From positions 64,178 through 128,177 of the forward strand of contig CAPIEU010000003.1 of assembly GCA_948630815.1 (NCBI GenBank): a DNA stretch of 64,000 bases. Direction: 5' to 3'. This DNA is from an uncultured Clostridia bacterium (GTDB taxonomy: Bacteria > Bacillota > Clostridia > TANB77 > CAG-508). This document shows, piece after piece, positions 43,862 to 58,242 of the stretch (positions are counted from its first letter, which is position 1; every line of letters starts with the position of its first letter). Position numbers and translations under genes: made by a program. Under the pieces are notes generated by a model that was given only the letters and a program-made list of their open reading frames with translations, was not told the DNA's origin and did no database searches.

Positions 43862-43890
43862 GGATTCTACACCTCATATAATATAATTTA

Positions 43891-43977
43891 TAGGGGCAGG
43901 CTACGTTAGTCCACCCTTCTATTTATCTATTAATAATTCAGTTCTACTGGGGGCAGACACAGGGCCTGCCTCTACAT
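43891..43977. repeat. two degenerate REP-like elements between ruvB and rpiA
   Basis: TAGGGGCAGGCTACGTTAGTCCACCC at 43891-43916 and GGGGGCAGACACAGGGCCTGCCTCTACAT at 43949-43977. Confidence 0.6.
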
Positions 43978-44723: not shown

Positions 44724-44750
44724 GAGCAGACACAGGATCTGCCCCTACAA
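44724..44750. repeat. degenerate REP-like element
   Basis: GAGCAGA-CACAGGA-TCTGCCCCTACAA. Confidence 0.55.
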
Positions 44751-52667: not shown

Positions 52668-55505
52668 TTATTTTTTTGTACCAGTTGTTGTGGTTGGTGT
52701 AGTTGGTTTAGTAGTTGTAGTATTTGTATTAGGTTTTACTGTGTTAGTAGTATTTGTATTACCACCTGTAGTTTGTGCTACTATTTTTACTGTAATTGCT
52801 TTAGTTCCAATGTTTCCTGCAGCATCTTGTACAGTATATGTTATTATATATGTTCCTACCTTAGTAGTATCAATTTGTGTTACTACTTTTCCATCTTTCT
52901 TTATTTCTGTTTTAATATTTTTTGTTATATCTCCATCAACATCATCTTTAGCTGTAGCTACTGGTAAAGTCAATTTACCATTTACTTTAATTTCTATTAT
53001 ATCTTTAGTTATTCCAGTTAAAGTAATAACAGGCTTTACAGTATCTGCTGGCTTTGTATGTGTAGGACAAGTCTCAGTTGGTGCCATATACTGTGCATCT
53101 GGAACATTATGCCATGATGTATCTGTATCTCTATTTGGTCTCGTTATAAATACTTTTTCTTCTACATTAGTACAAAACTCATTCGCTATTTTTCCAGTAT
53201 CTTTACATATTCTTAATTTAACATGTGTTTCACAAGTTTTTGAAGGCACAGTTCCTGATACAAACATTTCACTATATGCCCTATTTCCTCTTGGGTCTTG
53301 ATTGCATAATTCATTCGCAAGAAGTCCTGAATCTTTACAAATAGCAGCATTTACTAACCCACTTGGTTTATCAAATTTTGCAGATTCTAGTCCTTCATGA
53401 ATTTTATTCATAATACCGCCCCATCTTCCAGCAACAGTACCACTTCCTGGTGCTTTTGCATCTTTTCCATCATATGCAAAATACATTGCACCACTGTAAT
53501 ATGGTGTAAATCCACAAAACCATGTAATCTCTTGATTATCAGCAGTTCCTGTTTTTCCGCAAGTTTGTTGTCCTGTAACTCTAGCCCTTGTTGCAGTTGC
53601 TCCAGATGTTCCACTTATTCCTGTTCCTGTTGGCTCTGTAAGTAATGATTGCAAAATATATGCATTTTGCTCACTTAATACTCTATGTGTTTCTTGCTGT
53701 TTTTGCATTATTACATTTCCATTTGAATCTTCTACTTTTATATAAAATGTTGGTTCTATATATACACCATCATTTGCAATTGTTGCATATGCTCCTGCCA
53801 TTTCAAGTGGACTAATACCATTTGAAACTCCTCCAAGTGCTAAAGCAAGACCTGCATCTCTTGAATCATCTATTGTAGATATTCCAAATGATTTTAAATA
53901 TTCTATAGACTTAGCAGGACCTAATGTTCTCATCATTTTCACTTCTGGAATATTTCTTGATTCTCTTAATATTGATCTTATATTATATAATCCTTTATAT
54001 CTCCAATCATCATTATGTGGTTTATAACTTCCAAATGATATTGGGGTATCATCAACAACTGTTCCTGCATTTATTAGTCCTTCTTGTAATGATGGTGCAA
54101 TAACTGCTAATGGCTTTATAGAAGAACCTGGTTGCATTCCAGCACTTGTTGCTCTATTTGTTCCCCATGCTGTTTTTTCTCCTAGTACACCTCGTAATGC
54201 TACAACATATCCTGTTTTATGATCAATTATAGCCATACCTGATTGCATTTGAACTGTTATTCTATTTCCATTTTCATCTTTTTTATCTTTAGACTTTGTC
54301 GTTGTCCTCCAACTTTCATTCTCTGTATATTCTCTATCTACTATATCTTGTAAGTTTTTCTTTTCTGTAATATATATTTTATATCCACCACTCATTATTT
54401 TATTTAATGCTACTTGATAATCTAAATCATGTTCTTTTGCATATTGACTTGCAACTTGTTTAAGAGCTGCTTCTTCATTTTGAGTTAAAGAATTATAACT
54501 TGTAATATTACCCTCTTTAAAAGCAAGACCAGCATTTACTTCTTCTGTAGCTGATTTATGTTGTTCCTCATTTATCTTTCCTTGAGATAACATTTCATCT
54601 AATACAGTTTTTGTTCTGTTATTAATCCTTTCTGTCTTTGGATTTTCTTTAAAAGGATTATATATGTTTGGTGAATGGTTAATTCCTGCAATATATGCAC
54701 ATTGTGCAAGAGTTAGATCCTTTGGTGCTTTATCAAAATAATAATTTGCTGCAACTTTAACACCATAAACATTTTTTGCTCCTCCTCCAAGAGGAATTGT
54801 ATTTAAATATGACTCTAGTATTTGGTCTTTTGACATTTCTCTTTCAATTTGATATGCTTTTGCAATTTCTTTTACTTTTCTCATCGAAGATTTATCATTT
54901 TCACCAGTTGCATTTTTTATTAATTGCTGTGTAATTGTACTCCCACCATAAGTAGAATTCCCCATAAAATATTTTAATGTAGCACTTATCGTTCTTGAAA
55001 GATCTACTCCATTATGGTCATAAAATCTCTTATCTTCAATAGCAACAAATGCTTTAGGTAAATATTCTCCCATTTCTGCAAGAGTTATTATTTCTCTATT
55101 CTCATCACCATTTAAAGTTGCCACTTGATTTCCGTCTAAATCTATTAATACACTATTTTCTACACTTATTTCTAAATCTTTAACACTTATTTTAAAATCG
55201 TCTCCAAAAAGTCCAAAAAATAGACCAGCAAAAACACCTGCACCAATTATTGTAAGTATAATAATTAATGCAATAAATATTTTAAGAAATAATTTTAATT
55301 TAGGATGTTTTCCTTTTTGTTTCTTGTTCTTGTTATCTTTCTTATTTTTGTTATCTTTTTTGTCCTTGTTATCTTTCTTATTCTTGTTATCTTTTTTGTC
55401 CTTATTATTATATTCTTTATCTTTTACAGTATTAACTTTCTTAGTCTTTTCTGTATCAACTTTTTTGGTATGATTACTTTTTTTACTTCCCTTTTTAGCT
55501 CCCAT
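52668..55505 (-). CDS. bifunctional class A penicillin-binding protein (PBP1A: glycosyltransferase + transpeptidase) with C-terminal Ig-like and Thr-rich tail
   Basis: 945 aa. N-terminal Lys-rich repeat and TM helix. GT51 motifs EDKRFYDHNGVD and RKVKE. Transpeptidase motifs SSIKP, SRN and KTGT. C-terminal Ig-like domain and TTTTKPTTPTTTT tail. Confidence 0.9.
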   Translation of the reverse strand: MGAKKGSKKSNHTKKVDTEKTKKVNTVKDKEYNNKDKKDNKNKKDNKDKKDNKNKKDNKNKKQKGKHPKLKLFLKIFIALIIILTIIGAGVFAGLFFGLFGDDFKISVKDLEISVENSVLIDLDGNQVATLNGDENREIITLAEMGEYLPKAFVAIEDKRFYDHNGVDLSRTISATLKYFMGNSTYGGSTITQQLIKNATGENDKSSMRKVKEIAKAYQIEREMSKDQILESYLNTIPLGGGAKNVYGVKVAANYYFDKAPKDLTLAQCAYIAGINHSPNIYNPFKENPKTERINNRTKTVLDEMLSQGKINEEQHKSATEEVNAGLAFKEGNITSYNSLTQNEEAALKQVASQYAKEHDLDYQVALNKIMSGGYKIYITEKKNLQDIVDREYTENESWRTTTKSKDKKDENGNRITVQMQSGMAIIDHKTGYVVALRGVLGEKTAWGTNRATSAGMQPGSSIKPLAVIAPSLQEGLINAGTVVDDTPISFGSYKPHNDDWRYKGLYNIRSILRESRNIPEVKMMRTLGPAKSIEYLKSFGISTIDDSRDAGLALALGGVSNGISPLEMAGAYATIANDGVYIEPTFYIKVEDSNGNVIMQKQQETHRVLSEQNAYILQSLLTEPTGTGISGTSGATATRARVTGQQTCGKTGTADNQEITWFCGFTPYYSGAMYFAYDGKDAKAPGSGTVAGRWGGIMNKIHEGLESAKFDKPSGLVNAAICKDSGLLANELCNQDPRGNRAYSEMFVSGTVPSKTCETHVKLRICKDTGKIANEFCTNVEEKVFITRPNRDTDTSWHNVPDAQYMAPTETCPTHTKPADTVKPVITLTGITKDIIEIKVNGKLTLPVATAKDDVDGDITKNIKTEIKKDGKVVTQIDTTKVGTYIITYTVQDAAGNIGTKAITVKIVAQTTGGNTNTTNTVKPNTNTTTTKPTTPTTTTGTKK

Positions 55506-55627
55506 AAAATATCCTCCTTTGTGATACTATAAGTACATAGGCATATTATATTACAAATGTTATAAAAATGAAAGCATTTTAAGAAATTTTTAATTGTTTA
55601 TCTTAACAATAAATTTCAAATTAGGCA

Positions 55628-55654
55628 ATGTAGGGGCAGGTCTTGTGCCTGCCC
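55628..55654. repeat. REP-like palindrome, best full-length copy: ATGTAGGGGCAGG-TCTTGTG-CCTGCCC
   Basis: Perfect 13-bp stem including the outer TGTAGG half. Confidence 0.75.
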
Positions 55655-55786
55655 TTATATATTTCAATTATTATATGTATATGGTTAGGCATAATAATAT
55701 CAAAATGTAATATTACATTTGTAAATTCTTTTTCTAAATTCAAATATACATTTTCTACCATTTTTCTAATTTTGTTATTCTTTTCT

Positions 55787-55817
55787 GGACGGACTAAAGT
55801 CGCCCGCCCCTACACAT
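55787..55817. repeat. REP-like variant (GGACGGACTAAAGTCGCCCGCCCCTACACAT) overlapping the dprA stop region
   Basis: Shares the ACTAAAGTC loop and CCCCTACA tail with the copy at 62546-62574. Confidence 0.6.
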
Positions 55818-56697
55818 TATTTCTTAAATTTATCTCTTCTAACACATCTTTTACACTTGTAACACATTTTGCACCTTGTTTAATTAACTCATTTGTGCCA
55901 AAAGAATAATCACTTGTAATGTTACCTGGAATTACAAATACATCTTTCCCTTGTTCTAATGCAAAATCTACTGTTATTAGAGTTCCGCTCTTTTCTTTTG
56001 CTTCAATAACCAAAACACCATCACTTAATCCACTTATAATACGATTTCTTGCAGGAAAATTCATTTTATTTGCATTTGTGCCTATCACATATTCTGTTAA
56101 AATTAGCCCTCCATTTTCAACAATTTCATTATATAATTTTATATTTTGGCTAGGATATATTCTATCAAGACCGCTTCCTAAAATAGCTATTGTTTTTCCT
56201 TCTTGTTTTAATGCTCCTAAGTGTGCTTTACTATCTATTCCCTTTGCCATTCCACTTATAATACATATTCCCTCTTTTGATAAATCATACGCAAATTTTG
56301 TAGAAATATTTTCTCCATATTTAGTACAATTTCTACAACCTACTATTGCTATTGATTTGTTATTATGCAGTAATTGTTTATTTCCCTTATAATATAAAAT
56401 TACTGGTGCATCGTAAATATTTTTTAAATTTTTAGGATAATCTTCATCTAATATTGTAATCATTCCTATATGATATTTTTCCATATATTCTACATATTTT
56501 TCTAAATTACTTCTATATTTTTCATTTAATATTTGATTTGCTGTTACTTCTCCAACCCCCATATTCTTTAATAATTCTTCTTTTTTTAGTCCCCAAATTT
56601 CTTTTGGTGTTTTATAATTTTCTAATAATTGTTTTATTTTTATTGGTCCTACTCCTTCAATTCTAGATAACCATATCCAATATCTTTTATCGTCCAT
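55810..56697 (-). CDS. dprA: DNA-processing protein DprA (Smf)
   Basis: 295 aa. Rossmann-like DprA domain (GxxGIDxxAH-like region AKGIDSKAHLGAL and TLITVDFALEQGKDVFVIPG). Confidence 0.85.
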   Translation of the reverse strand: MDDKRYWIWLSRIEGVGPIKIKQLLENYKTPKEIWGLKKEELLKNMGVGEVTANQILNEKYRSNLEKYVEYMEKYHIGMITILDEDYPKNLKNIYDAPVILYYKGNKQLLHNNKSIAIVGCRNCTKYGENISTKFAYDLSKEGICIISGMAKGIDSKAHLGALKQEGKTIAILGSGLDRIYPSQNIKLYNEIVENGGLILTEYVIGTNANKMNFPARNRIISGLSDGVLVIEAKEKSGTLITVDFALEQGKDVFVIPGNITSDYSFGTNELIKQGAKCVTSVKDVLEEINLRNNV

Positions 56698-56712
56698 AAA
56701 TACCTCCTAATT

Positions 56713-56925
56713 TCAAATATGTTTTTCTACCATTTTCGCTAATTTTGTTATTTGATGTCTCTGGGCAGGTACAAGACCTGCCCCTACATTGTTTGTTATT
56801 ATTTTTGCTAATGTTTTTTCTCTATTTTGTGTACATATTGTTATAAAATAAAGACCTCTTTTTGAATAATCATATTCTTTTATCCTAATTGAATGTCTGT
56901 GATGTATATCTGGGTTAAATTTCAT
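56713..56925 (-). pseudogene. remnant of an IS200/IS605-family (RAYT-like) Y1 HUH transposase, internally deleted, containing a REP-like palindrome
   Basis: ATG at 56923-56925 follows a GAGGAGG ribosome-binding site. MKFNPDIHHRHSIRIKEYDYSKRGLYFITICTQNRE matches the conserved N-terminus of this transposase family, but the HuH and catalytic Tyr regions are missing (70 aa only). Codons VGAGLVPAQ are encoded by the palindrome GGGCAGGTACAAGACCTGCCC (56764-56790). Confidence 0.6.
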
Positions 56926-57044
56926 GTATTTTTTCCTCCTCACATAGCTTCCGTTTCATCTTGCACAAAAAAGAGAAACGATTAGTAATCGCTTCCCTTC
57001 GATTTTATTTAATAATATTTTTGCCCCCCACAAAATTATTATCA

Positions 57045-58020: not shown

Positions 58021-58242
58021 CTAACAACATTTCTTACAACATATAAGCATTATAATTCTTATTAAAATTAATACTCCTAAAAGTACTGCTACAGCTATAA
58101 CTCCACTTAGTCCTAATAGTACAAGAATTCCTGTTAAAGCTCCTATAATTAATCCTATTACAAATGCAAATAGAACTAATAATATAGTTAATATTAAGTC
58201 TACACAACATTTTCTATTTCTACATCCATCTTGTTCAAACAT
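58021..58242 (-). CDS. small Cys-rich membrane protein
   Basis: 73 aa. N-terminal CRNRKCC, two hydrophobic helices, C-terminal CCKKCC. No family recognised. Confidence 0.4.
   Translation of the reverse strand: MFEQDGCRNRKCCVDLILTILLVLFAFVIGLIIGALTGILVLLGLSGVIAVAVLLGVLILIRIIMLICCKKCC

Follow-up and report, generated by a model that had tools for sequence, protein, structure and literature searches.

The locus described here lies in a window of 64,000 nt of DNA from an uncultured Clostridia bacterium (assembly GCA_948630815.1, contig CAPIEU010000003.1, positions 64,178 to 128,177; window coordinates are used throughout) and concerns repetitive extragenic palindromes (REPs) and remnants of a REP-associated tyrosine transposase (RAYT) gene on both sides of dprA. 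In the direction of transcription, on the minus strand unless indicated, the following are found: folD (57890->57045), with a terminator-like hairpin after the gene; an open reading frame (ORF) of 70 aa (56713..56925), the N-terminal RAYT relic, which contains REP A; a segment of about 60 nt (s60*, 56698..56762), in which the RAYT codons after the first in-gene REP (ITKLAKMVE...) are repeated in diverged and frameshifted form and which runs into the ribosome-binding site of dprA; dprA (55810..56697), intact, 295 aa, with a full-length PF02481 match (1.2e-86); REP B (55787..55814), the 5' edge of a block that appears to have been relocated; a RAYT middle fragment (55655..55786), encoding (K)MVENVYLNLEKEFTNVILHFDIIMPNHIHIIIEI, with the codons for the histidine-hydrophobic-histidine (HuH) motif at 55683-55675; REP C (55629..55654, plus strand), the second in-gene REP, inverted relative to REP B; the tail of the block (55598..55628), of which about 12 nt may continue the RAYT frame (TLPN, a similarity that is not significant) and the remainder is of unassigned origin; the conserved dprA-downstream motif (A/G)ATAAACAATTAAAA; and the promoter region and gene of PBP1A (55505->52668). 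A short ORF of 46 aa (55621-55761), reading MVENVYLNLEKEFTNVILHFDIIMPNHIHIIIEIYKGRHKTCPYIA, has REP C at its end.

The palindromes that the original prediction had placed at three positions around dprA were recovered both by reading the sequence and by folding. REP C is TGTAGGGGCAGGTCTTGTGCCTGCCC (55629-55654, plus strand); REP A is TGTAGGGGCAGGTCTTGTACCTGCCC (56788->56763, minus strand), with a TGTAG foot, a stem of 8-9 bp and a loop of 3-5 nt; the two are 97% complementary over 29 nt. REP B is a variant, TGTAGGGGCGGGCGACTTTAGTCCGTCC (55814->55787, minus strand), with stem arms GGGCGGGC gacttta GTCCGTCC. Folded as single strands, A and C reach -8.8 and -9.7 kcal/mol (z of -2.6 and -3.2 against shuffles; 8-bp stems, 5-nt loops), and REP B is less stable (-4.5 kcal/mol, z -1.4). 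The GTAG foot of REP B supplies, in its TAG, the stop codon of dprA (55812-55810), and a direct repeat of about 87 nt with 74% identity brackets dprA (55734-55820 and 56707-56793). The codons for GAGLVPA are the palindrome itself, as had been proposed, REP A being read in frame as VGAGLVPA.

The 70-aa ORF consists of the 5' end of the transposase gene (residues 1-47), the codons of REP A and 16 codons of a duplicated segment. Alignment with orthologues identified it as the N-terminus of a Y1 transposase, as predicted: identity is 82% to residues 1-68 of the intact orthologue P0001, and 96.3% at the nucleotide level to the corresponding region of the related locus L013. Neither the HuH motif nor the catalytic Tyr is present in these 70 aa. 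The prediction that HuH had been lost thus holds for this ORF and not for the locus, the motif being encoded about 1 kb away, downstream of dprA. There the middle fragment matches P0001 residues 31-98 (tblastn), and the 46-aa ORF reads ...FDIIMPNHIHIIIEIYKGRHKTCPYIA, in which the family's HuH motif precedes REP C; its MPNHIHIII (MPNHIHGII in orthologues) agrees with the pattern NH[IFV]H. REP C is read out of frame in the window (KGRHKTCPY), the family frame being RAGTRPAPT. Coding sequence for the WQ motif and for the catalytic Tyr motif YIxNNP was not found by tblastn anywhere in the 64 kb, and neither was another member of the family. The one candidate for a C-terminal relic, a hit with E 0.6 at 8570-8496, belongs to the C-terminus of a PHP/HhH protein unrelated to the family and was discarded as a chance match. 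Because the W and Y motifs are absent, the window holds a relic and not a functional member; with the catalytic Tyr region gone, an active transposase is not encoded at the locus, and its REPs appear to be orphans within the window.

In Pfam searches neither short ORF gave a match when used singly; homology emerged only when the 70-aa ORF was joined to the HuH ORF as one query. This joined query gave 611 protein matches, the best being PF01797 proteins of 177-179 aa with 70-82% identity over 89-97% of the query. Aligned, the intact orthologues have the consensus MKFNPDIHHRHSIRIKEYDYSKxGxYFITICTQNREKILxKIxxNNVGAGLVSAQxxxTKLGxMVExxYLNLEKEFxNIxLHxYIIMPNHIHGIIEIxxRADTRPAPTxxDIICSFK...WQRNYYEHIIRNEKEYLKIQEYINNNPLNW..., and carry NHIH, WQRNYYEH and (E)YINNNP, which fit the pattern NH[IFV]H / WQ / YIxNNP of RAYT subclass 2.4. 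The best match of solved structure is 4ER8, the TnpA-REP of E. coli, and the nearest NCBIfam model is REP_Tyr_transpos (NF047646). For PF01797 the orthologues score 32-37 bits (cut-off 23) and the joined fragments of the window 14.7 bits, below the cut-off; the IS200 model NF033573 gives 22-30 bits against a cut-off of 55. A 60%-identical homologue of the remnant is annotated as Candidatus Scatovivens, family Clostridiaceae. The family as a whole occurs in many phyla, and a genome scan, in which the matches listed have at most 48% identity, yielded at least eight Clostridia-class loci of the same architecture in metagenome-assembled genomes (MAGs).

Two REP-encoded peptides, VGAGLV(S/P)AQ and RA(D/G)T(R/G)PAPT, occur in all intact orthologues. 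Since farther homologues lack the VGAGLV segment and read GEI-IDDKMVLNxAG at that place, it is an in-frame, REP-encoded insertion of about nine residues; the second in-gene REP, in opposite orientation, encodes RADTRPAPT directly after the HuH motif. According to Quentin, Siguier, Chandler and Fichant (2018; PMC6006769), tnpAREP genes of subclass 2.4 (Group 4 of Bertels et al.) hold in-frame REPs, and the supplement of that paper lists REPs of the same GTAG-plus-GG... type for the subclass. Among 120 family homologues listed, about one third stop soon after the HuH motif, and in several the second in-gene REP is translated in a different frame (GRSKPRPYN..., GRTESSAPT...), which is also the case in the window (KGRHKTCPYIA*); frameshifts that recur at this REP, contig ends and errors of assembly at hairpins are possible causes.

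Related loci were recovered by exact-protein look-ups. In sister genomes the gene order is folD, RAYT, dprA, PBP1A, and folD-RAYT-dprA synteny was found in five related genomes (L009, L010, L013, L014, L095), two outgroups included; a single, vertically inherited copy at a syntenic position is a trait of domesticated RAYTs as described by Bertels et al. (2017). The outgroups L009 and L095 (folD 86-87.5% identical at the nucleotide level) and the ingroup members L010 and L014 have an intact RAYT between folD and dprA; L013 has a RAYT with a stop (frameshift) at the second REP; in L098, codons 1-47 and a REP pass directly into the ribosome-binding site and ORF of dprA, the whole being called as a 350-aa fusion; in L096/L097 and L099/L100 the RAYT is wholly absent from the interval. 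Within the ingroup, folD identity is 92-96%. Comparison of outgroup and ingroup states makes RAYT ancestral at the folD-dprA site, with decay or loss on several occasions. Three relatives (L010, L013, L014) have an extra REP between the RAYT stop and dprA, followed by s60* in L010 and L013 and without it in L014, and in the same three REPs lie both upstream and downstream of the RAYT.

In 80 distant loci listed, neither dprA nor folD lies near the RAYT; the adjacency is therefore lineage-specific, and a functional link between RAYT and dprA was rejected on the same count. A shared +1 frameshift near the 3' end of dprA was seen in L010 (11390-11410) and L014 (6060-6075), whose dprA is read as a long ORF (258 and 261 aa) and a tail ORF of 43 aa and whose RAYT is intact; dprA is intact in the window, L096, L098 and L099, where the RAYT is truncated or absent; the L013 contig ends inside dprA; and in the outgroup L009 both genes are intact, the genomes being too few for an interpretation. 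In other phyla, N-only or C-only RAYT pieces or second copies were observed within a few kb (L035, 1195-1400; L079, 2909-3211; L076; L083), and from these partial pieces local fragmentation is recurrent in the family.

The breakpoint of the gene can be placed within a REP. The window from 56940 to 56760 aligns with L013 from the gene start through the first in-gene REP (91%), and from 56789 to 56650 with the post-gene REP, s60* and dprA start of L013 (84%); L010 gives the same pattern. The left flank of REP A is thus that of the in-gene REP and its right flank that of the post-gene REP of L010 and L013, which places the crossover within the approximately 34 nt that are identical between the two REP repeats of L010. 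About 400 nt were lost, namely the middle segment, the second in-gene REP and the C-terminus. In L013 and L010 the stretch from the RAYT stop to dprA shares 84-87% identity with s60*, which also matches the in-gene segment 55734-55779 (0 of 300 shuffles as good). Because the product in L098 has a different right junction, without s60*, deletions of the type that joins N-terminus, REP and dprA happened at least twice. The arrangement is real and not an assembly artefact: the 70-aa gene with dprA after it recurs in eight contigs of independent sequencing runs, and the four independent metagenome contigs that reach across the locus are 100% identical over its whole length.

The block downstream of dprA (55813->55624) aligns with the interval from the first to the second in-gene REP of L009, L010 and L013. 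Nucleotide identity of the middle block to the in-gene segment is 87.8% for L013, 85.2% for L014, 82.8% for L010 and 77.9% for L009, and dprA follows the same order (89.4, 87.5, 86.3 and 76.1%), so that the block derives from the resident gene lineage and not from a foreign paralogue. Compared with L099 it forms a clean indel of 186 nt, which follows ...AATAAT(G/A)TGTA, reads GGGGC...CCCCTACATTGC and precedes CTAATTT...; one end of the indel falls within the GTAG foot of REP B and the other 6 nt past the foot of REP C. A target duplication of about 30 nt of the dprA 3' end around the block was considered and rejected, only an imperfect repeat of 9-10 nt being present (AGAAATAAT / ATAAACAAT), which is not significant in AT-rich DNA. 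The idea that the inserts after dprA in L098 and L099 are decayed copies of the block was dismissed, alignment scores being no better than those of shuffles.

The palindromes are not confined to the locus. With up to two mismatches, the foot-plus-stem 12-mer TGTAGGGGCAGG occurs 13 times in the window against 0.95 expected (14-fold; 0 of 100 shuffles reach 13), and after inspection 11 footed hairpins were retained in the 64 kb (8455-, 31704-, 31725+, 31851-, 43889+, 43975-, 44748-, 55630+, 55813-, 56787- and 62573-). They have the properties of REPs, being imperfect palindromes of 20-40 nt with a conserved foot, mostly extragenic and present also as inverted pairs. Three inverted pairs point their feet outward (31851/31725, 43975/43889 and REP B/REP C); all REPs outside the transposase relics lie in short spacers between co-oriented genes; stems vary with compensating changes (e.g., at 8455); and no Rfam family matched anywhere in the window. 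The individual sites comprise a cluster downstream of polA (31680..31852, minus), in which the outward-facing pair (31851-, 31725+) is accompanied by a third REP (31704-); an inverted pair of 87 nt overall (43889..43976, both strands) in an intergenic spacer of 133 nt; a single REP (44724..44749, minus) filling the 42-nt spacer between VanW-like and RpiA-like genes; a single REP (8430..8456, minus) with the compensated stem change GGGTAGG/CCTACCC; and a single REP of the same variant type as REP B (62548..62573, minus) upstream of an MmeI-like gene. The REP B variant is also seen after the RAYT stop in L014. The third REP of the polA cluster (31680-31705, minus) combines the usual GTAGGGG foot with an unrelated stem (GGGTTGCAT ggt ATGCAACCC) and is next to a normal REP pair, which suggests a second REP lineage or stem turnover within one genome. 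Two AT-richer palindromes (4465-4490 and 9742-9768) with ATAG...CTAT or ATAG...CTAC at both ends (ATAGGGGTAATTTCGCTTACTCCTAT; ATAGAGGATTAGTAACTAATCCTCTAC) recall the 'double-foot' REPs of subclass 2.4 and could equally be plain terminators.

Single REP copies always have their foot on the G-rich minus strand. The GC skew of the plus strand is -0.25 along the whole window, and the long ORFs examined, including all genes adjacent to REPs, are on the minus strand; skew and gene orientation together indicate that the single-copy feet lie on the lagging-strand template. Preference for the lagging-strand template is established for the Y1 transposase of IS608 and would apply to these REPs by extension.

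Within the genes, the REPs form pairs of conserved layout. In the eight Clostridia-class loci of the scan and in L009, L010, L013, L014 and L095, the HuH codons have a footed hairpin some 129 nt on their 5' side and an inverted one some 58 nt on their 3' side. Their stems are wholly different between genomes and match within each gene, with compensating changes: GGGAGGGGC/TCCCCTCCC occurs twice in L065 and L084, GGGCGGCCC/TGGCCGCCC twice in L069, and GGCGGGGG/CTCCCGCC twice in L088. The gene's own REP is also found in the flanks of L088, L076 and L069, and across the two REP-encoded peptides L goes with R and P with G (Fisher p = 0.001, a statistic that ignores kinship). In most other phyla both in-gene REPs follow the HuH motif, and for Quentin et al. 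(2018; PMC6006769) the general place of in-gene REP insertions is between HuH and Y; a pair that brackets HuH is peculiar to this clade, and no description of it was found in the main text of their paper. On a more speculative reading, the in-gene pair of these Clostridia would constitute a REPIN (a pair of inverted REPs with their spacer) whose spacer encodes the catalytic motif of the transposase itself, and as a linked 'master copy' it might keep REP sequence and enzyme specificity co-evolving. REPs were also observed directly upstream of ribosome-binding sites, in the order REP, AAAATAACAAAAATTAGGAGG, ATG (L013, 645-672; L010, 10540-10625; L014, 5250-5285); the in-gene segment after the first REP has a similar AAAATTAGGnnAATGG with an in-frame ATG (MVE...), which might be an internal start.

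Taken together, the locus is best read as a decaying REPtron, the relic of a RAYT/TnpA-REP of subclass 2.4, a reading to which we assign a probability of about 0.85. The ancestor would have been one vertically inherited RAYT of about 178 aa between folD and dprA, holding two cognate in-frame REPs, feet outward, around the HuH-coding segment. By analogy with E. coli TnpA-REP and IS608, the intact enzyme would bind GTAG-footed single-stranded hairpins, cut and rejoin them, and so spread REPs into spacers; mobilisation of these REPs by their cognate RAYT is suggested, indirectly, by stems that co-vary within genes and differ between genomes and by the orientation on the lagging-strand template. 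On the path to the window, a duplicate REP with about 60 nt of RAYT codons was already present between the RAYT stop and the dprA ribosome-binding site, as in L010 and L013; a deletion crossing over in the identical REP repeat of about 34 nt then left N-terminus, REP, s60* and dprA; and a REP-bounded copy of the HuH segment, placed at the 3' end of dprA, would have replaced the last dprA codons, a REP foot serving as the stop. Family assignment, positions and the first two of these steps follow from alignment of the sequences, and the origin of the third is the more tentative part. Deletion and relocation are each open to an enzyme-catalysed event, to homologous recombination or to slippage at hairpins.

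Several observations weigh against this account. NF047646 gives the intact orthologues 74-76 bits, under its cut-off of 80. Cleavage at these REPs is extrapolated from E. coli TnpA-REP, a member of subclass 2.2, and an intact RAYT on another contig of the genome would make the REPs of the window non-orphan. The middle block is 12% diverged from L013 and the N-terminal relic 4%, which could make the block an earlier duplicate and not the piece that the deletion took out; the higher divergence would also fit an unconstrained pseudogene.

That greater divergence also bears on a second possibility, that two unrelated RAYT pseudogenes, from different paralogues or insertions, flank dprA by chance, as does the overlap of about 87 nt between the fragments, which is only 74% identical and involves different REP variants. 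The overlap is explained by the REP and s60* duplicate beside the intact gene in L010 and L013, however, and a block whose identities to relatives rank as those of dprA is what a resident lineage would give; with no other family member in the 64 kb, chance flanking is improbable. Somewhat less so, though still doubtful, is a more active history, in which the RAYT copied or excised its own REPIN, from first REP through HuH to second REP, and reinserted it 1.1 kb away at the dprA 3' end, REP and s60* being a second, abortive copy. The block does run from REP to REP as a clean 186-nt indel relative to L099, TGTA directly 5' of it is common to donor and target, there are two local partial copies of the same gene interval, and feet-outward pairs exist elsewhere in the window. 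It is a single instance, however, and the same product would arise by duplication followed by deletion or by hairpin-promoted slippage; the indel against L099 is unpolarised, and the L098 and L099 inserts bear no significant resemblance to the block. The 80 other loci listed yielded no detached middle fragment, and descent of the dispersed REPs from a REP-HuH-REP unit was rejected, their spacers and flanks having no significant similarity to the middle segment in a comparison in which s60*, as positive control, was clearly significant. If true, this history would be that of a RAYT acting on, and finally destroying, its own gene, with the natural footprint kept in the window.

The original prediction had instead assumed a single IS200/RAYT-like gene, internally deleted by a jump from ...QNRE to ...VGAGLVPA..., of an element class well described in Proteobacteria but not in clostridia. 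A 70-aa ORF with neither HuH nor Tyr and with no Pfam match would suit such a gene, but the supposed junction, ITNNVGAGLVPAQ, is the normal in-frame sequence of intact P0001 and P0003-P0005; the sequence lost is 3' of the REP, so that the ORF is truncated on its 3' side; and the HuH segment survives at 55655-55786. As to novelty, in-gene REPs are likewise published, and RAYTs were recorded in Clostridia by Bertels et al. (2017; PMC5581495), in keeping with the loci of our scan. We regard this version as very improbable, while the proposed link of the palindromes, as REP-type elements, to a RAYT-type Y1/HuH transposase is supported. Hardly more plausible is it that the palindromes are ordinary terminators or regulatory hairpins unconnected with a transposase: they do lie in spacers between co-oriented genes, but the foot, TGTAGGGGC, is conserved, the stem is not followed by a T-run, two copies are within the coding sequence of every intact orthologue, the stems co-vary with the gene's own copies, and Rfam gave no match. 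A contig mis-joined at repeated hairpins, conceivable for a MAG with breakpoints at repeats, is to be discounted almost entirely, given the agreement of the independent contigs described above.

Among known systems, subclass 2.4 (Quentin et al. 2018; Group 4 of Bertels et al. 2017) is the closest in its NHIH/WQ/YINNNP motifs in intact orthologues of about 178 aa, in GTAG-footed REPs that flank the gene, in in-gene REPs that keep the frame, and in low copy number at a syntenic position across related genomes; it differs in that the gene of the window is dead (no W/Y region) and split around dprA, and in that the first REP of this clade precedes HuH, in the loop after the first strand, so that the pair brackets the motif. 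The E. coli TnpA-REP (4ER8) REPtron with its REP/BIME (bacterial interspersed mosaic element) sequences, of subclass 2.2, shares the GTAG foot, the pairing of inverted REPs and one chromosomal gene with REPs on either side; its motifs are DHLH / WE / YIHYNP, no REPs lie inside the E. coli gene, and the host here is an AT-rich spore-former. The REPINs of Pseudomonas fluorescens (Bertels and Rainey 2011) resemble the outward-foot pairs at 31851/31725, at 43975/43889 and in the gene, inverted REPs with a spacer being the presumed mobile unit; here copies are far fewer, with 11 in 64 kb and, for most relatives, none in the 20 kb or so around the gene; the spacer of one 'REPIN' codes for protein, and any mobility would be putative. 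IS200/IS605 elements (TnpA-IS200, subclass 1.1) have in common the Y1 HuH fold, PF01797, recognition of single-stranded hairpins and preference for the lagging-strand template; unlike them, the present system has Y...NP rather than Y...Q, a single-copy syntenic gene with one locus per contig, no tnpB, and inverted rather than co-oriented hairpins. As in REP and Rickettsia palindromic element (RPE) insertions in genes (Di Nocera et al. 2013), palindromes are tolerated in frame, and here a REP foot provides the dprA stop; unlike in those cases, the host ORF is the REP's own transposase and the positions of insertion are conserved across the clade.

With respect to the host and the remainder of the window, G+C content is 27%, and since SpoIIM is encoded the host is an endospore-former. 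The N-terminus of the 945-aa PBP1A (55290-55480, minus) is a Lys/Asn/Asp-rich low-complexity repeat, KDKKDNKNKKDNKDKK..., located before the membrane anchor and encoded by imperfect tandem DNA repeats. A hydrophobic, Cys-rich small ORF of 73 aa (58021-58242, minus), ending in ...ICCKKCC and with no Pfam match, is conserved directly upstream of folD in all related contigs examined. An MmeI-family type IIL restriction-modification enzyme of 955 aa with all five MmeI domains is encoded at 59606-62473 (minus); the gene is at its site in the species of the window and not in L009, L010 and L014.

The element is a degenerate addition to a described kind and opens no new class of system, and the hairpin in the codons of the 70-aa ORF is a normal, published feature of subclass 2.4 RAYTs rather than the sign of an odd deletion. 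What the locus adds is that one small group of gut Clostridia displays all stages of RAYT decay at a single syntenic site: intact genes (L009, L010, L014, L095), a gene frameshifted at its in-gene REP (L013), deletions joining N-terminus, REP and dprA (the window and L098), and complete loss (L096, L099). With its breakpoints at REPs, this is a natural series on how REP-RAYT systems die and on whether in-gene REPs make the gene that carries them fragile.

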